From an uncultured Methanosarcinales archaeon (GTDB taxonomy: Archaea; Nanobdellota; Nanobdellia; Woesearchaeales; ARS49), in contig CAYHOF010000001.1 of NCBI GenBank assembly GCA_964358315.1, forward strand, positions 39,916 to 103,915: a stretch of 64,000 nt of DNA, written 5' to 3'. Below are positions 40,112 to 48,790 of the stretch, one piece after another (within the stretch, counting starts at the first letter, position 1; every line of letters begins with the position of its first letter). The notes beneath the pieces are model-generated. The model saw only the letters and a list, made by a program, of their open reading frames with translations. It was not told the origin of the DNA and did no database searches. The position numbers were made by a program, and so were the translations under genes.

Positions 40112-41278
40112 ATGCGTCGCACGACACGACTGATCATCGTTGTCCTTCTTGTCGTTGTCCTCATCATCCTCGGCACCTACCAATACCTCAACTACAACCC
40201 GCCGCGCGCCATCTTCGGCATCACGCCCACCGCTGTCCCTGCCGCGCGTTCTCCTATCACTCTTGATGACGTGACCGTCGTCGCAAGCGGCCTCTTGATT
40301 CCCTGGGATATGGTGTGGCTGCCGGATGGCGACATGCTCGTGACCGAAAGGCCGGGACGGATCAGGCGTGTAGGCGAGCGCAACGTCACGATCGTCGTTC
40401 CGTCTTCATCGGCCATCTTCAAACAGCAAGAAGCAGGACTGCTTGGCATCGTGCTGCACCCGGATTTCGCCACCAACAACCTGCTCTATGTCTACCAGAC
40501 AAAGACCACTGAGGAGGGCGCGAGCAATTACATCGAGCGCTACACGCTTGTCGACAACACCCTTGCCGACAGGAAGCTCATCCTCGGTCCCCTGCCAGGT
40601 GCGATCTATCACGACGGCGGCAAGATGGCGTTCGGACCTGATGGCAAACTGTACGTGACGGTCGGTGATGCCACGGACGAGACTCTTGCGCAAGACCTCA
40701 AGCACTTCAACGGCAAGCTGTTGCGCATGAACGACGACGGCACGCCTGCGGCAGACAACCCGTACAAGGACGAGAACAATATCGCGACCAACTATGTCTG
40801 GTCGTACGGTCATCGCAACTCGCAAGGCATCGCGTGGGACGACAAAGGTCGTTTGTGGTCGACAGAACACGGCCGCTCCGGCGCTTTGTCCGGCTATGAC
40901 GAACTGAACCTGATCGAGAAAGGCAAGAATTATGGATGGCCCGTCATTGAAGGATCTGAGACAAAGGATGGCATGGAAGCGCCCGTCTTCCAAAGCGGCG
41001 CTGACGAGACGTGGGCGCCAGGCATGATCGTGTTCCACGACGGATCATTATGGTTCACCGGCCTGCGCGGCGAGACCCTCTACGAAGCAGTCATCGACGA
41101 CAGCGGACCCAGACCGAAAATCACGTTGCGCTCGCATCTGCGCCAAGCGCTCGGACGCCTGCGCGCACTCGAGATAGGACCTGACGACAAGCTCTATCTG
41201 AGCACGAGCAACACAGACGGACGCGGCAACCCTCGAGAAGGGGATGATAAAGTCGTCCGAATCGAACGTATTGGCTGA
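40112..41278 (+). CDS. PQQ-dependent aldose sugar dehydrogenase (GSDH family)
   Basis: PWDMVWLPDG, GLLGIVLHPDF, HDGGKMAFGPDG, YGHRNSQG, GKNYGWP, GRLR; N-terminal TM. Confidence 0.9.
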   Translation: MRRTTRLIIVVLLVVVLIILGTYQYLNYNPPRAIFGITPTAVPAARSPITLDDVTVVASGLLIPWDMVWLPDGDMLVTERPGRIRRVGERNVTIVVPSSSAIFKQQEAGLLGIVLHPDFATNNLLYVYQTKTTEEGASNYIERYTLVDNTLADRKLILGPLPGAIYHDGGKMAFGPDGKLYVTVGDATDETLAQDLKHFNGKLLRMNDDGTPAADNPYKDENNIATNYVWSYGHRNSQGIAWDDKGRLWSTEHGRSGALSGYDELNLIEKGKNYGWPVIEGSETKDGMEAPVFQSGADETWAPGMIVFHDGSLWFTGLRGETLYEAVIDDSGPRPKITLRSHLRQALGRLRALEIGPDDKLYLSTSNTDGRGNPREGDDKVVRIERIG

Positions 41279-41284
41279 ATTTCT

Positions 41285-41300
41285 GCCGGAAAAATCACGG
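41285..41300 (+). promoter_or_regulatory. Shared upstream motif copy 1 (GCCGGAAAAATCACGG)
   Basis: CCGG starts 61 nt before PIN ATG; overlaps palindrome AAAAATC-ACG-GATTTTT. Confidence 0.65.
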
Positions 41301-41346
41301 ATTTTTGAGGGTAACGCATTTTAATGATAGAGATACGTACTACTGC

Positions 41347-41757
41347 ATGAGTAAACTCATTTATTGCGACACGAATGTGTACATGGACCACTTTCTTGGC
41401 AGAAGCGACAGATTCGCGCCTCTCGATGAGTTTGCAGCGCAAGTCTTCAGGCGATCCCTTGAATGTGAATTCACCATCATCGTTTCTGATTGGGTATTGG
41501 CAGAACTCGCGGCACACGGCATGTCCAGCCACATGGCGAGATGGTTGGAACGGTTCCATGCACGAAAGAAGGTTGTATTAGTAACGGCCGATGAGAATGA
41601 TAAGACTGCGGCGCGACGACTCCCGATACATTTCAGCGATGCCGTGCATGCGGTGCTGGCGCACCGTCATGGCGCGCAGAACATCGTCACGAACAATATC
41701 AAAGACTTTCTGCCCTTTACAAACACAGTGCCGTGCGTCGCACCGAGATTCTTATAA
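41347..41757 (+). CDS. vapC: PIN-domain (VapC-like) ribonuclease toxin
   Basis: IYCDTNV, VLAEL, SDAVHAVLA, IVTNNIKDF. Confidence 0.85.
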   Translation: MSKLIYCDTNVYMDHFLGRSDRFAPLDEFAAQVFRRSLECEFTIIVSDWVLAELAAHGMSSHMARWLERFHARKKVVLVTADENDKTAARRLPIHFSDAVHAVLAHRHGAQNIVTNNIKDFLPFTNTVPCVAPRFL

Positions 41758-41904
41758 TCCCTTCCTGCGGAAGAACTCTTCTGCGAGCTTGTCGCGTTCT
41801 TGTTTGGACAAGATCCTCACAGGTGGGCAGCTACCTCGTAGTGCTTCTATCGCGGCGATATCCGCGTCGACATCCCTGCGGTGCTTACTCACGGTCTTCT
41901 CCAT
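41752..41904 (-). CDS. Small antitoxin-like peptide (MEKTVSKHRRDVDADIAAIEALRGSCPPVRILSKQERDKLAEEFFRRKGL), not in ORF track
   Basis: Translated by hand (alternative start 41910); own TATA-like AATAAATA and motif copy 2; stop region overlaps PIN stop convergently. Confidence 0.55.
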   Translation of the reverse strand: MEKTVSKHRRDVDADIAAIEALRGSCPPVRILSKQERDKLAEEFFRRKGL

Positions 41905-41951
41905 GGTCATGACATATGCATTGTCGGTATTTATTCTTTTGCCCGCAAATC

Positions 41952-41967
41952 CCGTGATTCTTCCGGC
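41952..41967 (-). promoter_or_regulatory. Shared upstream motif copy 2 (GCCGGAAGAATCACGG)
   Basis: 15/16 identical to copy 1, 62 nt before ATG 41904. Confidence 0.65.
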
Positions 41968-41997
41968 CTACAATCATGTCAAGAATGAGTAGTGGAT

Positions 41998-42016
41998 AAA
42001 GAAAAAAACAAAAAAA
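41998..42016 (-). terminator. Oligo-U archaeal terminator after CxxC-x17-CxxC gene
   Basis: Long T tract on minus strand about 30 nt downstream of stop 42046. Confidence 0.5.
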
Positions 42017-42045
42017 TTGATGTGCTAGGAGCGAGTGTATCGTTC

Positions 42046-42210
42046 TTAGAACTTCTTGTGCTTGCTGAAGCAGTCCCTGCAGTAGACCGGGCGGTCTGCC
42101 TTGGGCTTGAAAGGCACTTCGCATTCTTTACCGCAGTCTGCGCATGTTGCCTTGTGCATCTCGCGAGGGCCGCCGAAGCCGCCACCGCCTTGTCTGTCTC
42201 CAAATGCCAT
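42046..42210 (-). CDS. CxxC-x17-CxxC zinc-ribbon protein (54 aa), not in ORF track
   Basis: Hand translation MAFGDRQGGGGFGGPREMHKATCADCGKECEVPFKPKADRPVYCRDCFSKHKKF; GAGGA SD. Confidence 0.9.
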   Translation of the reverse strand: MAFGDRQGGGGFGGPREMHKATCADCGKECEVPFKPKADRPVYCRDCFSKHKKF

Positions 42211-42404
42211 GTTTAATTCCTCTGTGTTACGTCGTACTTGCGTACGATGTTCGTTTACTTATCTTCTGCTTATACGTCATCCCCTTACGAGAACCCACAT
42301 ATAGCTAGAGCCAAAAAAGCACGGACCCTATATAAAACTATGCCCTTTATATAACTAGGAAGTGATGAAACACTCATTGTCTTGAGCGGCATCAACCTTA
42401 AATA

Positions 42405-42878
42405 TTGTCCGAACATCGAAAGCTCTGTTTGGCAGACTATGTGAAAAAAATTCGTGAACATATCGTTTTTACGGTGACGTTAGTTACCTTTTTTGCAGTT
42501 TTTGTTCAGGTATTTCTGCAACATGCTGCGGTATCAGCGTCTCAGACCATTTCGATTGATCCGGGTAAGGCGTTTTTGGGCTATTCTTCGGTGATTGTTT
42601 TCTTTATATTCTCATATGTTTTTCTCGGCGATATACGTTATGATAATCATCGTTTGTCAAAAATCGTGAACGTTCTGCTGTTAACAGAGATGGTATTGAT
42701 TGCGCTATCTACATCATACTTGGCTTCGTTCGATTGGATAACTTCAATCAGTGTAGGGTGGCCATTAGTTGTGTTGTTGAATACTATACTCTACGTCGCA
42801 ATTGGCTTGATGCCCGTCATCATTTTTGTCGTTATACTCATTTGGCGTTTTTCCCTTAAGAGTAAAGGTGTTCTATGA
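42405..42878 (+). CDS. Membrane hypothetical protein (AT-rich island; start may be GTG 42441)
   Basis: Four hydrophobic segments, AT-rich codons, ATGA overlap with next gene. Confidence 0.6.
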   Translation: MSEHRKLCLADYVKKIREHIVFTVTLVTFFAVFVQVFLQHAAVSASQTISIDPGKAFLGYSSVIVFFIFSYVFLGDIRYDNHRLSKIVNVLLLTEMVLIALSTSYLASFDWITSISVGWPLVVLLNTILYVAIGLMPVIIFVVILIWRFSLKSKGVL

Positions 42879-43561
42879 GCTTTTTCGAAAAAAGGTTCTT
42901 AGGACGTGGAGTGAAATTTTACTTTATTGTTAATTCTAGCATCCCGATGGTGCAGTGGCATCTGTGGAAGATTGATATGAACACTGAGAGCCCACTTGCA
43001 GACTATTACCAACGAATTGACGTAAGCGATTATGTATCGGGTGGCTTCGGCAAATGGAAGAACTGGAAGCAAGTCAAGGTCGTTGCACTTCATGCTAGTT
43101 TCAAAATTAAAAGTTCACGTGCTGAAAAGTATTACTATGCTATGTTCAAGAACTTTACAAGTTGGTTTATCAATTACTGTAAAATCAAGGGTATTGAGTG
43201 TAGAGTCTACGATTTTCAAATGCTGTACAAACTCGAGCCTGAAGAGAAGAGTGGAGAATTCTGCCCCGTACCGTCGTTAAGGAAAATTGCAAATGAAATA
43301 ATCCGTCCTCCAGTATCTCTTCCAACACCTCCGAACACGGGCGAGGAAATTGTTTCCCTTGCTTTGAAACAGACCGCTCTCAACAAGCGCGCGCTAGATG
43401 CTATGATAAACGCAGTTAAACTAAAATATGGCTCTGCATATATTGGATTACCAATGCTTCAGGTGAAAGACGCAAACACTGGTGAACTTGAACTTTTTGT
43501 GGCAGAACCGGGTATGGAAGTTTATTTCCCGGCGAAAAAGAGAAGTGTGCAGCTTCCTTGA
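42875..43561 (+). CDS. Hypothetical protein (AT-rich island)
   Basis: 228-aa ORF in AT-rich DNA, coupled to upstream gene. Confidence 0.6.
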   Translation: MSFFEKRFLGRGVKFYFIVNSSIPMVQWHLWKIDMNTESPLADYYQRIDVSDYVSGGFGKWKNWKQVKVVALHASFKIKSSRAEKYYYAMFKNFTSWFINYCKIKGIECRVYDFQMLYKLEPEEKSGEFCPVPSLRKIANEIIRPPVSLPTPPNTGEEIVSLALKQTALNKRALDAMINAVKLKYGSAYIGLPMLQVKDANTGELELFVAEPGMEVYFPAKKRSVQLP

Positions 43562-43663
43562 TTCATTTTAAGTTGATTTTTAATTATTCGTTCACAATCT
43601 TTTTATCCTGTTGTTCAGTAATCATAATCTGCCTTTTTCTGAAGGGGTGGGAAGGCCTCGATC

Positions 43664-44344
43664 ATGGACCACGTCAGGCTTGAAGACCGGATCAAGGAGC
43701 TCTCGAAGGAGGGCAAGACATTGCCTGTTTCCGAACGTTTGGGTGACTGGGGGTATCATGCCTGGCAGCTCAAGGTCGCAGCGCTCAAGGTCGAATTCAC
43801 GTGCCTGGCGGCGACCGAACTCAGCGAGTTCGCCGCGCAGATCGGCACTAGCTACGCTGGTTATGACCAGACATCCTTCTGGACGCGCACTGCGTGCATG
43901 GCGTTCGGCATCGCCTGTGGTTATGTCACTGCAGTCGCCACGCACCTCCACACGCCGCGGCACACCATTGAGACCGACAAGCCATTGACGACCGTCATCG
44001 CTGAATCACTCAGCGCCGCGTATCGCGGTTTCGGCACGTTGCGGCGTTTTGTGTTCTGTGAAGGCACACCTGACTATCGCGAAGAGCGCTGGCAGCACAT
44101 CAAAGGCGCATTCAAGCACGCCGTCTGGGGCGAACTCTTTGGCTGCGTCACGACAGGAGCGGTGGCCGAGAACGTGATCACCAGCATGCTCGGCGGCAAC
44201 AAGTTCTCGTTCGACCAACCCGAATTCTACACCATCCGACTCGGCTCACTCATCCCTGCATATCTCATGGCAAGCGCGGTCGTCGCGCTCAGCTACGGCT
44301 ACGAATCGCACAAACAGTGCGCGGGAATGGAACACGAACACTAA
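43664..44344 (+). CDS. Hypothetical membrane-associated protein
   Basis: 226-aa ORF with host-like codon usage and hydrophobic segments. Confidence 0.55.
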   Translation: MDHVRLEDRIKELSKEGKTLPVSERLGDWGYHAWQLKVAALKVEFTCLAATELSEFAAQIGTSYAGYDQTSFWTRTACMAFGIACGYVTAVATHLHTPRHTIETDKPLTTVIAESLSAAYRGFGTLRRFVFCEGTPDYREERWQHIKGAFKHAVWGELFGCVTTGAVAENVITSMLGGNKFSFDQPEFYTIRLGSLIPAYLMASAVVALSYGYESHKQCAGMEHEH

Positions 44345-44432
44345 GCGCGTGTCCGGAAATCTGACGAATTTCTTCTGTTAATTCTCCATTTAGATCACAA
44401 GTCTTTTAGATCCTGACCTGTGCTGTATAGGG

Positions 44433-45119
44433 ATGAATCCACATAATGAAATTTTGTCGTATACTGAATTATGTTCTCTTGTTGGTGGAAGCATACAGAA
44501 AGGAATCAATATTCGTTACCGCGGTAAGGAAACAATATTATTGATGTCTCAAAGAAAGAATGCTCCATGCCAGGATAGATATGACCCTTCTAGAAACATC
44601 TTAGAATATGTAGGTCATGATGTAAGGAAAACATTGCAAACGCCACGTCCAAGAGAACTTGATCAGCCACTCATTTCCGAAAAAGGCACTCCTTCAGATA
44701 ATGCTAAACTGATTAACTTCTTAACACGTTCTGGCGTCTTAAGTTCGCCTGAGCGTGTGCATATTTTTGAAAAGCTACAACCAAATATTTGGGCAGACAA
44801 AGGCATATTTGAACTAATTTCGTATAGGGAGACCGTTGCCAGTAATCGCAGGATATTTGTTTTTGAATTGAAACCTGTTCCTTATGATACTCATACTGTT
44901 CTTTCAGATGACTTTGAACACACGAGGCTTATTCCGAGCGAAATAAAAGTGATAGTTTGGAAGCGAGATAAAGGTAAATGTGTTGTGTGCGGTTCAGACA
45001 AAAACCTTCACTACGACCACGATTTGCCATTTTCAAAGGGCGGTACTAGTTTCCTTGTTGAAAACATTCGTATTCTTTGTGCTAAATGCAACTTGAAGAA
45101 GGGCGCAAAGATAGAATGA
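44433..45119 (+). CDS. HNH endonuclease with N-terminal SRA/PUA-like domain (putative modification-dependent restriction enzyme)
   Basis: RDKGKCVVCG..LHYDHDLPFSKGG..NIRILCAKCNLKK; N-terminal KGIN..QDRYD..LEYVGHD..DQ..DNAKL resembles SRA/YDG. Confidence 0.75.
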   Translation: MNPHNEILSYTELCSLVGGSIQKGINIRYRGKETILLMSQRKNAPCQDRYDPSRNILEYVGHDVRKTLQTPRPRELDQPLISEKGTPSDNAKLINFLTRSGVLSSPERVHIFEKLQPNIWADKGIFELISYRETVASNRRIFVFELKPVPYDTHTVLSDDFEHTRLIPSEIKVIVWKRDKGKCVVCGSDKNLHYDHDLPFSKGGTSFLVENIRILCAKCNLKKGAKIE

Positions 45120-45143
45120 CGTGGGGATACTGCTCGGTTAATC

Positions 45144-45569
45144 CTATTTTTCATAGAGTATGAAGTGAGGTAACTTCAATACTCCAGTGTAGTTGAACAT
45201 TCTATAGCCCGCTCGACGAGCTTTTGAAGAGAGAACTCTCCGTCTTAGATTTGCTGCGGGTACAAATGGATAGAACCATATTGCTTGTTTCTCGCTACCT
45301 TTTTCTTGCCACTTGAAGTTAATGATGAGTGGCGGCATGAGATGCCCTGCCTTCTTAACTTTTTGATATATGTCCCAGCCTGCGCCGAACACTTCGTTCT
45401 TGGGCTTGCAGAAATTCGTTTTTACTTGTGCCCTGAAGAGACAACCTGTGCACTGAAGATCAACCATTGGATAATTCCTTGGTAGCATCATTAGCTTACG
45501 GCCACAGTTAGGGCACTTGACTTTTTTAATGACCTCCGCTTCTCCTGCATCCCCTTCTTTACTTGTCAT
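45144..45569 (-). CDS. DpnI-like (Dam-replacing family) PD-(D/E)xK nuclease domain, without winged-helix domain
   Basis: CPNCG..LPRNYPMVDLQCTGC..AQVKT, GAGW, LSSKARRAGY parallel DpnI CPNCG..NNRPVADFYC..ELKS..ARRAGW. Confidence 0.75.
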   Translation of the reverse strand: MTSKEGDAGEAEVIKKVKCPNCGRKLMMLPRNYPMVDLQCTGCLFRAQVKTNFCKPKNEVFGAGWDIYQKVKKAGHLMPPLIINFKWQEKGSEKQAIWFYPFVPAANLRRRVLSSKARRAGYRMFNYTGVLKLPHFILYEK

Positions 45570-45655
45570 TCTTCTGAAAATGAAGATCTTACTATTTAGA
45601 TCTATTCTTGTTCCCAACCGCAACCCTTTTTAACCCCGTTCTCTATGGTTTGTGC

Positions 45656-46081
45656 ATGGCTCTCAAACTACCTGATTCAATGGATGAGTGTGCGTATTTC
45701 ACGCGCCGGACTATCAATGAAGGCAAGGGCAGGATCATGGCGTGGGTGTTCCGTGGTTCGTGTCCGAAGTGCAGGAAGGCGCTCATGGGCAAGCCCAGGA
45801 ACGATACGGGTGGCGTGAAGATCCGATCGTTGGAGTATGTATGTCCGGCATGCAGCCACACGGTCGAGAAGAAGGCGTACGAGGACACGCTGACGTGCAA
45901 CATCCAGTACACGTGCCCGTACTGCAAGAAGTCCGGCGAGGCGCAAGCGCCCTTCCAGCGCAGGACGTTCGAAGGCGCGAAGGCGGTCGTGTTCGAGTGC
46001 GGTTCGTGCAAGAAGAAGTTAGGAGTCACGAAGAAGATGAAAGTGGGCAAAGGAAGCCCTATTGAGGACGATGATGACTAA
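45656..46081 (+). CDS. Multi zinc-ribbon protein (four CxxC)
   Basis: CPKC, CPAC, CPYC, CGSC; TTTTTAA box upstream. Confidence 0.8.
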   Translation: MALKLPDSMDECAYFTRRTINEGKGRIMAWVFRGSCPKCRKALMGKPRNDTGGVKIRSLEYVCPACSHTVEKKAYEDTLTCNIQYTCPYCKKSGEAQAPFQRRTFEGAKAVVFECGSCKKKLGVTKKMKVGKGSPIEDDDD

Positions 46082-46090
46082 GGAGGACCT

Positions 46091-46597
46091 ATGAGAACGA
46101 TCGTTGTCGTGTTGATGATTCTCGCGCTCGTGGCTGCGTGCGCGCCGGCGAGCCAGCCTACTGCACAGCGTCCGTCTGGCCAAAGTCCGCCTATTATCGA
46201 GCCTGATGCACAGAAGATCCCGACGTTGCTGCCCACGGACGTCAAGTTCACGTTCACCAAGTGCTTCACGACGCGCTACAGCAACAGGGACGCGTCGAAC
46301 GTGAACCTCGAAGCGTCCGGCACCGCGCAGGGTCCAAGTGGCATGATATTCTCGATCCGCAGCGACAAAGTGCCCACGGCCACGATCACGGAGTGCGGCG
46401 CGTGGACGTTCCGCAACGACACGAAGACCTGCCTCCGTGGGGAAGGCCAGCCGGCAGAGACCACGTGGAAAGGCAAGGATGTCGCGCTCGTGCCAGGCGA
46501 CCAGCACGGACGACAGCTCGTGCTCACGCCGACAGTCAACATCGGCGATGGCGTGAGGATCATGAACGACCTGGCATTCACGGTCACGTGCGATTGA
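46091..46597 (+). CDS. Hypothetical lipoprotein
   Basis: GGAGG SD, lipobox-like VAAC, Pro/Gln linker. Confidence 0.75.
   Translation: MRTIVVVLMILALVAACAPASQPTAQRPSGQSPPIIEPDAQKIPTLLPTDVKFTFTKCFTTRYSNRDASNVNLEASGTAQGPSGMIFSIRSDKVPTATITECGAWTFRNDTKTCLRGEGQPAETTWKGKDVALVPGDQHGRQLVLTPTVNIGDGVRIMNDLAFTVTCD
46567..46597 (+). repeat. 31-bp direct repeat, left copy (3' end of lipoprotein gene)
   Basis: CGACCTGGCATTCACGGTCACGTGCGATTGA; 30/31 identical to 47203..47233. Confidence 0.9.
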
Positions 46598-46614
46598 CGG
46601 CGTTGTTGTAGCCG

Positions 46615-46881
46615 TTATACTGCATAGATCTTGTCGTGATGCTCGAAGTCAACGAGAGTGACTGTCGTTGCGGCTTCATCAACCATGAATGTGAGGACGA
46701 AACAGCTGTCGATATGCACCCGCTTCAGGTGTTGATATGGCCGTCTGAGGTTCTTGTAGTGGTGCGGGTTCTCAAGGATTTCATCCACTTTTTTCAGGAT
46801 GATGTCGTAACGGTGCCGGTTCTTCTTTGCCAGGCGTGCCAGTTCACGTTCGAGCGTAGGTAGTATGTTCAGTGTGTACAT
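46615..46881 (-). CDS. RelE/ParE-superfamily toxin
   Basis: ILENPHHYKNLR..LKRVHIDSCFVLTF..DFEHHDKIY. Confidence 0.85.
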   Translation of the reverse strand: MYTLNILPTLERELARLAKKNRHRYDIILKKVDEILENPHHYKNLRRPYQHLKRVHIDSCFVLTFMVDEAATTVTLVDFEHHDKIYAV

Positions 46882-47120
46882 CAGCGAGAGTGCCTCTTAC
46901 GGAGGTTCTCGACAGTGCCCACCTTTATCGGTGTCTCTTTGAGGAGTCTCGACAATTTCCGGGCGTATGCGGGCCGCAATTCTGGCTCGAGGACGTTCTC
47001 TTCGTACTGCTCTGCCATGATGTCGATGGCGGCAGACTTGTCCCGAAGGCCGTACTTTGCTTTCAGGATATTGAGTACCCTATTTGTGTGGTCCGAGATG
47101 TCGATTATCGCTTGCACCAT
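46881..47120 (-). CDS. Antitoxin (DUF2683-like)
   Basis: MVQAIIDISDHTNRVLNILKAKYGLRDKSAAI..EPELRPAY; TGATG overlap with toxin; GGAGG SD. Confidence 0.8.
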   Translation of the reverse strand: MVQAIIDISDHTNRVLNILKAKYGLRDKSAAIDIMAEQYEENVLEPELRPAYARKLSRLLKETPIKVGTVENLRKRHSR

Positions 47121-47202
47121 ATCCTCCGTTATATCTTTTCTAGTATATTAATATTATGTTAATATCATATGAATATTAGTGCCAGATCACGTCCGTGAAT
47201 TT

Positions 47203-47233
47203 CGACCTGGCAATCACGGTCACGTGCGATTGA
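47203..47233 (+). repeat. 31-bp direct repeat, right copy
   Basis: CGACCTGGCAATCACGGTCACGTGCGATTGA. Confidence 0.9.
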
Positions 47234-47239
47234 TTAGTC

Positions 47240-47455
47240 CTACGCTGCACCTTGCACAACCCATTTCTTCGGGATGTACCTGATGCTCCCCTTCACGTTG
47301 ACTTCGCAGCAATGGTGTTTGTCCTCATCCTGGATGAGGCGGGACTTGTTGATTGTCGCTGCCCGCAGATTACCGGTGTCGCCAAGAATTGACAGATAGA
47401 AGAACCTCTTATCGCCGATGACCTTGAACGGTATCGGGACGGTGTTAGTTGTCAT
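47240..47455 (-). CDS. Small hypothetical protein (71 aa)
   Basis: Overlaps end of upstream HTH gene; start at MTTNT inferred. Confidence 0.45.
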   Translation of the reverse strand: MTTNTVPIPFKVIGDKRFFYLSILGDTGNLRAATINKSRLIQDEDKHHCCEVNVKGSIRYIPKKWVVQGAA

Positions 47456-47633
47456 ATGGTACGAGGAATCCTTCGCGCTCAAGCTTTTGCACGAGACGTG
47501 AAATGGTCGTCAAGGGTATATGGGTCGCTTTGTACATGTCGACCATGTCGACAGTGCGTTGTCCTCGGTGCTTCATCTTCACGATTTCGCGTCTCAAGGT
47601 ATCCAGTCGCGCATCTCTTTTTGTTGTCGCCAT
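47445..47633 (-). CDS. Small winged-HTH protein (62 aa)
   Basis: DMYKATHIPLTTISRLVQKLEREGFL HTH pattern; TATA-like TTAATAAA and motif copy 3 upstream. Confidence 0.65.
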   Translation of the reverse strand: MATTKRDARLDTLRREIVKMKHRGQRTVDMVDMYKATHIPLTTISRLVQKLEREGFLVPYDN

Positions 47634-47680
47634 GAAAGTATTGATGGCGCCAGTTTTTATTAATCTTTCCTCGAAAAAAG

Positions 47681-47728
47681 CGTGATTTTTCCGGCGGTAC
47701 ACTAGGTGTGCGTCCGAAAATATCACGG
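47681..47728. promoter_or_regulatory. Back-to-back motif copies 3 (minus, GCCGGAAAAATCACG) and 4 (plus, CCGAAAATATCACGG)
   Basis: Copy 3 is 61 nt before ATG 47633; copy 4 is 60 nt before ATG 47774. Confidence 0.65.
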
Positions 47729-47773
47729 AATTCCGAGCAAAGAGATATATAGAATCAGACGTCATTACGTATT

Positions 47774-47899
47774 ATGAAAGAATCATTTTCCAAGAAGGTG
47801 TTGAACTCCAAGAAGGATAACATCGACTGGGATCTCGTGCAACAATTCAAGGATAGTCTTGAAGATATCAAGCATGGACGTGTCCGTCGCGTTGGTTGA
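47774..47899 (+). CDS. Tiny orphan antitoxin-like peptide (41 aa), not in ORF track
   Basis: MKESFSKKVLNSKKDNIDWDLVQQFKDSLEDIKHGRVRRVG; SLEDIKxGRV matches archaeal RelB-type C-termini; ATATATA box upstream. Confidence 0.6.
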   Translation: MKESFSKKVLNSKKDNIDWDLVQQFKDSLEDIKHGRVRRVG

Positions 47900-47905
47900 A
47901 AAGGA

Positions 47906-48790
47906 TCAATCGTGTGCGAGCCGTGTATGGTTCATGCCAAAAAGAATGCTGCCTGCGACGAACAACTTCCGGGAGAGTGTGGTCGCCGCGCGCTTGTTGA
48001 ACACGTCATACTGATTCTTTTCGATCCTGGTCAGGATGTCGCTGTAGAGCACTCTGGCGCAGGCGACGGCCTTCCTGCGGGTCGGCGGGATGGATAGCAG
48101 GCCTTTGTCTGCTTCTGCGTAGATGTGACGGTTCCGCTCGATCTGAAAGCGCATGAACGCCTTCCAATTGTCGTCCACGATGCCGTTCTTGATGTGGTCT
48201 TCGGTCACGCCGAAGCGTTCCATGTCCTCAAGCGGCATGTAGATGCGGCCGCGCGCATAATCTTCTTTGATGTCGCGCAAGAAATTCGTGACTTGCATCG
48301 CCTCGCCAAGCTGTGCGGCATGCGTAAGTGCTTTCTCGTCGTCGACCCCGAGCAGCGGGCACATCATGCGGCCAACGCACGACGCGCTGCCCCGCATGTA
48401 CTTCTGCAGCTCCGCATACGTCTTGTAGCGGGAGATGGTGAGGTCGCTTTCCATCGCGTCGAGGAAATCAAGCGCGTCCTTGAGCTGGATACCCATGGTG
48501 CGCATGGTGTGGCCGAACGCGTGAAGGATAGGGTTCTCGACTGACTTGTTCGCGTGCGCTTGGATGGTCTGCATGCGGAACTGGCGCACCGCGCGGCACC
48601 GTTCAGGGATGGTGGCGTGGACTGGATTGTCCACGAGCTCGTCCGGATAGCGCACGAAGCCATAGAGCGCGTTCACGTGCGGACGCACGTCCTTTGGGAA
48701 GAGCAGCGTGCTGAAATAGTACGTCTTGCCATGATGCTGCTGGATGCGACGGCATTCTTCATACGCCGGCAGCAGGTGGGGCGGGATCAT
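47906..48790 (-). CDS. crtB: Phytoene synthase
   Basis: HGKTYYFST, LYGFVRYPDELVD, LGEAMQVTNFLRDIKEDYARGRIYMP. Confidence 0.93.
   Translation of the reverse strand: MIPPHLLPAYEECRRIQQHHGKTYYFSTLLFPKDVRPHVNALYGFVRYPDELVDNPVHATIPERCRAVRQFRMQTIQAHANKSVENPILHAFGHTMRTMGIQLKDALDFLDAMESDLTISRYKTYAELQKYMRGSASCVGRMMCPLLGVDDEKALTHAAQLGEAMQVTNFLRDIKEDYARGRIYMPLEDMERFGVTEDHIKNGIVDDNWKAFMRFQIERNRHIYAEADKGLLSIPPTRRKAVACARVLYSDILTRIEKNQYDVFNKRAATTLSRKLFVAGSILFGMNHTRLAHD

Follow-up and report, generated by a model that had tools for sequence, protein, structure and literature searches.

How can a toxin gene and the gene of its presumed antitoxin receive the same signal if they do not form one operon? This question is raised by a 64,000-nucleotide stretch from an uncultured Methanosarcinales archaeon (Woesearchaeales in the GTDB lineage; assembly GCA_964358315.1, contig CAYHOF010000001.1, positions 39,916 to 103,915), to which we refer as the window. 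A first-pass annotation had pointed out that a 14-nucleotide word, CCGGAAAAATCACG, precedes a PIN-domain toxin gene, two antitoxin-like open reading frames (ORFs) and a small winged helix-turn-helix (wHTH) gene at a nearly fixed distance. This was read either as a dispersed toxin–antitoxin (TA) regulon under one trans-acting factor, or as a recombination site of single-gene cassettes. Our analysis shows that the word belongs to a conserved dyad operator, which is probably read by one dimeric factor and is shared by TA genes and other promoters that appear to be leaderless.

A search of the window with up to two mismatches returned five matches to this 14-mer, compared with a mean of 0.26 in 100 dinucleotide-preserving shuffles, none of which reached five. 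Four of these matches are the copies named in the first-pass annotation (41286 on the forward strand, 41953–41966 and 47681–47694 on the reverse strand, and 47714 on the forward strand), each found exactly where it had been claimed. The fifth (26418, reverse strand) has no promoter-like sequence downstream. The reported spacing to the start codons is also correct, with 61 nt from 41286 to 41347, 61 nt from 47694 to 47633 and 60 nt from 47714 to 47774; the 62 nt reported for 41966 run to a second in-frame ATG (41904, 50-residue product), and the first ATG (41910, 52 residues) lies 56 nt away. All four copies are followed by a TATA-like box that starts 30 nt 5' of the ATG. Three weaker copies had been proposed as well. 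A scan of the window with a position weight matrix (PWM), in which the four strong copies score 26–34, lends some support to one of them (44351, forward strand, score 14.9) and none to those near 47193 and 42310 (scores below 6).

The 14-mer makes up the left two-thirds of an operator with dyad symmetry, the ideal form of which is CCGGAA-N3-TTCCGG. A second, degraded form with two mismatches in the right arm, CCGGAA-RAA-TCACGG, is frequent in the genome that holds the window (G000: 1.40 Mb in 47 contigs, 57% GC, 96% complete), and this is the variant from which the first-pass annotation took its word. The exact word is limited to G000, where it has 10 matches, with at most two in each of the 30 related genomes that we searched. 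With a PWM cut-off of ≥18.5 we found 30 sites in G000 and none in the control, for which the genome was reversed without complementation; nine of these sites had not been used to build the PWM. Perfect dyads number six, with none in the same control. The 30 sites are spread over 13 contigs and occur in either orientation, and at 18 of them a start codon follows 62–65 nt from the PWM start (this count takes a GTG at C8 30306, and a later in-frame ATG on C17 and at 41943 on the reverse strand).

These sites are the upstream part of a module of about 45 bp, which consists, in this order, of the operator (about −61 to −45), a T-tract, a BRE-like GCAACG (BRE: B recognition element) and a weak TATA box (CATTTRAA from −30). 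The consensus reads CCGGAAnnnT(C/T)(A/C)CGGATTTT, followed by three to five variable bases and GCAACGCATTTRAAGA. In the 62–65 register CATTTRAA takes the place of the TATA box, and it makes a poor one. No known RNA family was found at the modules by Rfam, the sole match being the intron-bearing tRNA on C22 described below.

The constant distance to the start codon can be explained by the general design of promoters in this genome. TTTATATA-type boxes are enriched in the intergenic regions of G000, and in 97 of 283 cases genome-wide a TTTAWAWA box starts 30 or 31 nt ahead of an ORF ATG. In the profile of 286 leaderless promoters of G000, the A-rich BRE spans −35 to −33, the TATA box occupies −30 to −24 and a C stands at −1. 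These are the sequence features of archaeal leaderless promoters, which carry the TATA box about 30 nt before the start codon, an A-rich BRE and a pyrimidine at −1. From this geometry we infer the transcript starts, and leaderless transcription would be the rule in G000. The fixed position near −60, which the first-pass annotation had treated as a property of the motif, is then no peculiarity of the motif but follows from leaderless promoters, in which the ATG stands at +1 and 30–31 nt past the TATA start. The operator itself is not part of this general design: since the 286 promoters show no conservation at −61 to −40, the operator is specific to a subset of promoters. We also considered an alternative promoter class with its own TBP or TFB. 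The assembly contains one ORF each for TFB and TBP, which makes an alternative general factor unlikely at 96% completeness, and this candidate was rejected.

Of the 30 sites, about 16 can be attributed to TA or TA-like genes; 12 of these were assigned by Pfam or by partnership with a PIN gene, and the other four assignments are weaker. The module is found at the gene's own or its operon's promoter in eight of the 11 PIN loci of G000, with three loci lacking it (Fisher p = 1e-12, computed against a crude set of 1332 ORF calls), and in front of all three small MazE genes. The genes served are the following.

TA-type genes by Pfam: PIN or PIN_2 toxins, MazE/AbrB antitoxins, a VapB+PIN operon
TA-like gene: a HicB-like protein, with a Pfam match below the cut-off
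Other small genes: the 52/53-residue and 41/42-residue mini-ORFs, the 62-residue wHTH protein
Further genes: an Lrp/AsnC regulator, a DUF7718+wHTH pair, a TctA transporter, a lamin-tail-domain protein, a DUF6206 protein
RNA gene: an intron-bearing tRNA (C22), in a different register

A regulon confined to toxins and mini-antitoxins, as first envisaged, is therefore too narrow. Likewise, the statement that the motif does not precede housekeeping genes holds inside the window and fails genome-wide, where the TctA, Lrp/AsnC, lamin-tail-domain and tRNA genes have sites.

The PIN locus of the window illustrates the arrangement best.

41284–41309, forward: operator part of the PIN promoter (PWM score 33.9; 14-mer at 41286–41299; dyad CCGGAA-AAA-TCACGG, then a T-tract)
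41310–41327, forward: BRE-like GGTAACG and weak TATA box CATTTTAA (start 41317, 30 nt before the ATG), in the geometry of leaderless promoters
41347–41757, forward: gene of a PIN-domain (VapC-like) toxin, 136 residues (PF01850, E 4.3e-07, 31 bits against a cut-off of 23.6)
41752–41910, reverse: putative mini-antitoxin, 52 residues (50 from the ATG at 41904), convergent with the PIN gene and overlapping its 3' end
41926–41968, reverse: promoter module of the mini-antitoxin (operator 41943–41968, PWM score 27.2, covering 41953–41966; BRE/TATA AAGAATAAATA at 41926–41942)

The ATG of the PIN gene probably coincides with its transcript start. The two genes are convergent and overlapping, and each has a separate module. 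The same arrangement is found on C10, where a PIN paralog (64% identical) is accompanied by a 53-residue ORF with 51% identity to the 52-residue protein; the promoters of the PIN paralogs on C1 and C10 keep the register and carry different operator variants. No Pfam family was found in the 52-residue protein, which aligns solely to the C-terminal part of longer antitoxins, including one of AbrB type at a locus of relative G001. The earlier suggestion that the antitoxin-like ORFs have no DNA-binding domain thus holds at least for the 52- and 53-residue antitoxins.

Structure prediction suggests that the 52-residue protein binds the PIN protein as an antitoxin, and this assignment gains support from its homology with the C-terminal region of the AbrB-type antitoxin of G001. 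The predicted complex reached an ipSAE of 0.91, compared with 0.18 for the best of three controls, with a partner pLDDT of at least 87 and agreement between runs in at least 95% of the contacts. The mark used was reached by 58 of 80 solved complexes and by two of 110 mismatched pairs, a calibration that is rough here, as we supplied our own alignments. Solved VapBC complexes exist, and the pass may reflect likeness to these. Compared with a type II VapBC system, the locus contains the PIN toxin and, by prediction, an adjacent toxin-binding antitoxin; in place of a co-directional operon that is autoregulated through the DNA-binding domain of the antitoxin, it has convergent genes with their own promoters. 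With the PIN protein of the window as query, the search for related loci returned distant bacterial PIN proteins only.

The operator is not confined to one genome. Counts of the palindrome with up to one mismatch exceed those in the control in relatives G009 (22 against 1), G017 (21 against 2), G014 (16 against 0), G005 (14 against 2), G021, which belongs to another family (11 against 0), G002 (5 against 0) and G011 (5 against 0). The same search found none in G007, G008, G020 and G027–G029. The layout is preserved as well: G017, G009 and G005 have the dyad, about 8 nt, RAACGCATATAAAG and an ATG at 59–61 nt, and G009 also has tandem dyads 20 or 30 bp apart. Four of 15 loci of the PIN subfamily in the relatives have a dyad (up to two mismatches) at −61 or −62, and another, overlapping set of four of the 15 has it at the expected promoter of the convergent antitoxin; two of these loci come from the unpublished genome G010. 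The genes that flank the motif-bearing locus of the window (40112–41278 and 47906–48790) were found in none of G001, G005, G010 and G012.

Comparison of these loci shows that the antitoxin varies while the operator and its register stay. In G001, which belongs to the same genus, a PIN relative with 45% identity is convergent with a 114-residue antitoxin of MazE/AbrB type. In G005, a perfect dyad precedes the ATG of a PIN gene on C7 by exactly 61 nt, this gene faces an 87-residue ribbon-helix-helix (RHH) antitoxin, and a second PIN gene on C1 faces a 55-residue protein that has the dyad 61 nt before its own ATG. Between this 55-residue protein and the last 49 residues of the 87-residue RHH antitoxin, the identity is 49%. 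RHH antitoxins convergent to PIN relatives also occur in G014, G023, G019 and G009, and the ATG of the one on G014:C42 follows the dyad by 61 nt. The antitoxin domain at related loci is thus AbrB in G001, RHH on C7 of G005, and absent at two loci of G000 and on C1 of G005. BLASTP gave no alignment between the 53-residue protein of G000 and the 55-residue protein of G005; the case for their relatedness is based on where they lie and on the multiple alignment. In G005, G009 and G017, the recurrent genes behind the site also include those of a PD-(D/E)XK nuclease and a divergent small membrane protein. An RHH_8 protein behind a site in G017 was considered as a conserved regulator and rejected, since it belongs to the convergent antitoxins.

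One sequence in G009 stands apart from these genes. At L019:1500–1680, about 20 nt separate a full module from a downstream sequence with complementary ends like a tRNA acceptor stem (GCCGGCG...CGCCGGC), which may be a tRNA with unusual introns; neither ARAGORN nor Rfam called it.

How might such a site work? A dimeric, sequence-specific transcription factor that is conserved in this archaeal family would bind the operator. The site lies a few base pairs upstream of the BRE and in front of a poor TATA box, so the factor would most likely recruit TBP and TFB to a weak promoter; activation is thus the expected outcome, and repression is possible. PIN toxins and their convergent antitoxins would receive the same input in trans, which would explain why the antitoxins can do without a DNA-binding domain. 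The proposal of the first-pass annotation that one trans-acting factor controls separately transcribed toxins and antitoxins fits the shared dyad, the fixed register and the recurrence of element and spacing in several genera. Its candidate for this factor, the wHTH protein encoded at 47448–47633, does not fit. Homologs with E ≤0.01 were found in four of the 30 relatives only (best identity 35%), with none in G001, and among the palindrome-rich genomes there was no match in G005, G009, G014 and G021 and a weak one in G017 (E 0.0026). Such a patchy distribution makes this protein an unlikely reader of a family-wide site, and we rejected it as master factor; it is a member of the regulon instead.

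Another candidate, on which the evidence conflicts, is found among the Lrp proteins. Archaeal Lrp/FFRP (feast/famine regulatory protein) operators have the form abcdeWWWedcba, with CCGAAA[AAT/ATT]TTTCGG as the optimum of FL11 (PMC2715240). Lrp activators bind as dimers at a constrained position a few base pairs upstream of the BRE and recruit TBP, with sites two or three helical turns apart (PMC2995911). By analogy, the format of our site fits an Lrp-like protein. The CCGGAA/TTCCGG arms agree with the published form, with ATC, GAT or CAG frequently in place of W3 at the centre. The position upstream of the BRE is constrained, with a constant register in G000, G005, G014 and G017, and the tandem spacing in G009 is the 20 or 30 bp given above. 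Furthermore, most members of the Lrp family autoregulate, and the Lrp gene of G000 at C4:44057–44533 carries two sites at its own promoter, with another two dyads at the 3' end of the gene; its ortholog in G001 has a module with the ATG at 62 nt, and an Lrp paralog of G001 has a perfect dyad upstream. The closest solved relative of the C4 Lrp subfamily is FL11/PH1519 (E 5.7e-11). The G001 ortholog shares Ser36, Thr37 and His39 with FL11 and goes with CCGAAA sites, and the G000 protein has Thr36 and Ser39 and goes with CCGGAA sites. This covariation between residues and sites is suggestive of an Lrp candidate, with a misfit to the published code at base b.

As a separate observation, the two dyads at the 3' end of this gene, CCGGAAGATATCCGG and CCGGAACAGTTCCGG (C4:44066–44114), lie 30 bp apart within its last approximately 20 codons; they might serve the following gene as operators or act as a roadblock.

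Several observations weigh against a single conserved factor. For the Lrp candidate, Thr36 in the G000 protein should specify T at base b under the FFRP contact code, and the site has G; the centre triplet, frequently ATC or GAT, is not pure A/T; none of 20 AsnC-type HTH genes in G009, G017, G014, G005 and G021 has the palindrome within 1.5 kb; and the C4 Lrp subfamily was not found in these five genomes. More generally, the distribution of Lrp orthologs does not correlate with the palindrome counts. The best-conserved member outside TA systems, the PD-(D/E)XK nuclease, has an ortholog without the site in G000, so membership in the regulon is plastic. Four modules (C30, C31, C1 7107 and C7 1438) lie 40–75 nt 5' of a second, canonical TATA box, and the TATA-like part of these modules may therefore not drive the gene. 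A strong variant-1 operator at C1:6562–6587 (score 30.6), which is 545 nt away from the site of the HicB-like gene, is an orphan with neither BRE/TATA nor an ORF in register. All gene calls and start codons are crude ORF calls made in this analysis. Finally, spacer sub-families recur (GGATTTTTGAGG three times, TTCGCCGCAACGC twice) and repeated intergenic blocks adjoin the modules, among them a 59–134-nt element on C4, C9 and C31 with 95–98% identity, which suggests that some copies spread by duplication.

The last of these points leads to the strongest competing explanation, by which the module of about 45 bp was propagated as a reusable promoter, through duplication or recombination together with accessory genes, so that the likeness of its copies reflects common descent. 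In addition to the repeats, the mostly accessory nature of the genes served (TA, HNH, NYN, LAGLIDADG) and three palindromes of G017 that abut IS605 TnpB-like elements point in this direction, and promoter reuse has been described for prokaryotes (PMC3575422). We nevertheless consider this explanation unlikely. The copies are identical only in the dyad, the T-tract and the BRE/TATA part, and both the flanks and the stretch to the ATG differ. PIN paralogs and homologous loci in other genera keep the register despite divergence in sequence and GC content (36–57%), which argues for selection on function. Exact searches with two 21-mers of the module gave no matches in viral contigs. Moreover, promoter reuse is compatible with a regulator, as a propagated promoter would still bring its operator along. 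In a scan of metagenomes, three of the eight contigs recovered were identical to loci of G000 itself and the other five lacked the module after the match.

Classical type II antitoxins autoregulate, and the palindrome might accordingly be the operator of the AbrB/MazE or RHH antitoxins, which would also repress the promoters of their domain-less relatives. The three small MazE/AbrB genes of G000 have the module themselves, as autoregulation predicts. This cross-regulation is improbable for three reasons. Antitoxins with an AbrB domain, an RHH domain or no domain stand behind the same operator in the same register, and two unrelated folds are unlikely to bind one dyad; the sites also serve tRNA, TctA, nuclease and small membrane protein genes; and the site lies upstream of the BRE rather than over the TATA box or the transcript start, where one would look for the target of a repressor.

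The recombination or attachment site of single-gene cassettes, or a DNA hairpin of an IS200/IS605- or REP-like system, is a very remote prospect: the inverted copies that flank the PIN/mini-antitoxin pair (41284 forward, 41943 reverse), a dyad that could fold into a 6-bp stem with a 3-nt loop, the TnpB-like elements next to palindromes in G017 and the 44–47-nt direct repeats between co-oriented genes on C31 would all suit it, but the inverted copies belong to a pair of convergent promoters and keep the usual register, each to its own TATA box and ATG, the motif is locked to BRE/TATA and start codon and precedes non-cassette genes, its copies are dispersed over 13 contigs in both orientations without arrays, and the C31 repeats are 3' coding tails rather than the motif. 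Array boundaries beside a recombinase, as in integrons, do not appear in the distribution of the sites, from which this comparison was made without a search for integrase, TnpA or recombinase genes.

Several repeats near the sites deserve description in their own right. The 59–134-nt block shared by C4:44519–44870, C9:39640–40060 and C31:4290–4640 is rich in hairpins (TTTTCCCAGGTTCAACGGAGCCTGGCTCCGTGAAC...), lies in each case between two operator copies and ends in a T-run; it has no Rfam match and might act as a terminator or specify a small RNA. The three co-oriented direct repeats on C31 (3548–3591, 4517–4563 and 5907–5953) are 3' coding ends with the common tail ..IKRFFPAINELKVA, which looks like repeated regeneration of the 3' end of a gene, as at integration sites. 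A second conserved word, CCACTGGACAGG (ACTGGACA), occurs between dyad and TATA box at C2:~95880, C14:~1067, C26:~4650 and in G001 L076, and also in G017 L079, L081 and L083, including the three IS605 TnpB-like elements; this word may be a second operator or the end of an insertion sequence. Hairpins of the form GCCTTTTT-N-AAAAAGGC beside CTGGGGAAAA/TTTTCCCCAG at C14:~4266 and ~4585, at C17:~8291 and in upstream regions on C4 and C31 are terminator-like intergenic repeats.

The other two strong copies in the window face away from each other, one serving the wHTH gene and the other a 41-residue ORF. Together with the weaker site, they comprise the following features.

47243–47633, reverse: two-gene unit of the 62-residue wHTH protein (47448–47633), then a 71-residue ORF (47243–47455); weak matches to HTH_IclR/MarR_2 below the cut-offs
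47650–47696, reverse: promoter module of the wHTH unit (operator 47671–47696, covering 47681–47694, PWM score 29.3; TATA box TTAATAAA 30 nt before the ATG at 47633)
47712–47756, forward: divergent promoter module of the 41-residue ORF (operator 47712–47737, covering 47714–47727, PWM score 26.3; TATA box GATATATA 30 nt before the ATG at 47774)
47774–47899, forward: 41-residue ORF, without a Pfam family; 45% identity over 29 residues to a 42-residue ORF on C7
44351–44376, forward: weaker operator-like site (PWM score 14.9), 82 nt before an HNH endonuclease gene (44433–45119, Pfam HNH)

The wHTH gene and the 71-residue ORF, for which no known family was found in Pfam, share 8 nt (47448–47455), a layout typical of a TA-like pair. 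The 41-residue ORF is possibly a mini-antitoxin, and no partner toxin was found for it in the window; its 42-residue paralog on C7 is convergent to a 109-residue protein without a Pfam family. Two low-GC islands (42300–43600 and 44350–45620) lie in this GC-rich region and contain ORFs of no known family, together with the HNH endonuclease gene and the gene of a DpnI-like protein (45147–45569, reverse). A ParE-like/DUF2683 pair is found nearby (46615–47120, reverse), in which the ParE-like gene occupies 46615–46881, and the region looks like a defence or accessory island.

A more far-reaching version of the single-factor reading would make the factor a master regulator of the family, which acts through one dyad at −61 on dozens of leaderless promoters, and would let trans control of TA genes account for repeated loss of AbrB and RHH domains from the antitoxins. 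We offer this version tentatively, as it is rather doubtful at present. If it is true, this mode of TA control has not been described for type II systems, and it would connect the expression of TA genes with that of tRNA, nuclease and membrane-protein genes. Already the binding of one factor to the operator would place TA activity in this lineage under the control of a global signal. In any case, the operator provides a sequence handle for finding accessory or defence genes and mini-antitoxins in these genomes, and the combination of an upstream dyad with a weak TATA box defines a testable class of archaeal promoters. A narrow search of full-text literature found no paper that describes this element.

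How does this wiring compare with known systems? Type II TA modules are normally described as self-contained operons in which the antitoxin represses its own promoter. The genes discussed here differ from this scheme in that they are convergent, have separate leaderless promoters and share one conserved operator. Classical VapBC systems resemble the G000 pair in having a PIN toxin and a small adjacent protein, the C-terminal part of which is predicted to lie over the active-site region of the PIN domain; the G000 pair differs in having neither an operon nor an antitoxin DNA-binding domain, and in the convergent orientation with overlapping 3' ends. In three-component TA systems (omega-epsilon-zeta; paaR2-paaA2-parE2) the antitoxin also lacks a DNA-binding domain and a third protein controls transcription, with the regulator encoded in the same operon and all genes co-directional. 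In G000, by contrast, toxin and antitoxin genes are convergent with their own promoters, and the presumed regulator would be unlinked and shared with many other genes. Judged from sequence, the trans control of convergent toxin and antitoxin genes, with an antitoxin DNA-binding domain that can be lost, would be a new variant on known themes.

The operators of FL11, Ptr2, Ss-LrpB and LysM have 6-bp arms and a 3-bp centre like the G000 site, and the SELEX optimum of FL11 differs from it by one base per arm (PMC2715240). Lrp systems are also alike in the proximal site a few base pairs 5' of the BRE and in tandem sites two or three helical turns apart (PMC2995911). They differ in that the known regulons are metabolic and not TA systems, in that the Lrp genes of five palindrome-rich relatives have no site nearby, and in that the G000 operator often has a centre that is not pure A/T. 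Convergent Phd-Doc pairs in Sulfolobales are a further parallel, as is the regulatory sequence shared by anti-defence genes of archaeal viruses; both are covered in PMC11065993, and they provide examples of convergent archaeal TA pairs and of a common promoter signature for a class of small genes. These cases concern other TA families in another lineage, the shared sequence is a viral early promoter, and a dyad at −61 is not described in the passages covered here. Finally, mobile promoters (PMC3575422) resemble our modules as near-identical promoter segments before non-homologous genes of one genome. The G000 modules differ from these in that their likeness is restricted to the functional blocks and their register is conserved across genera.

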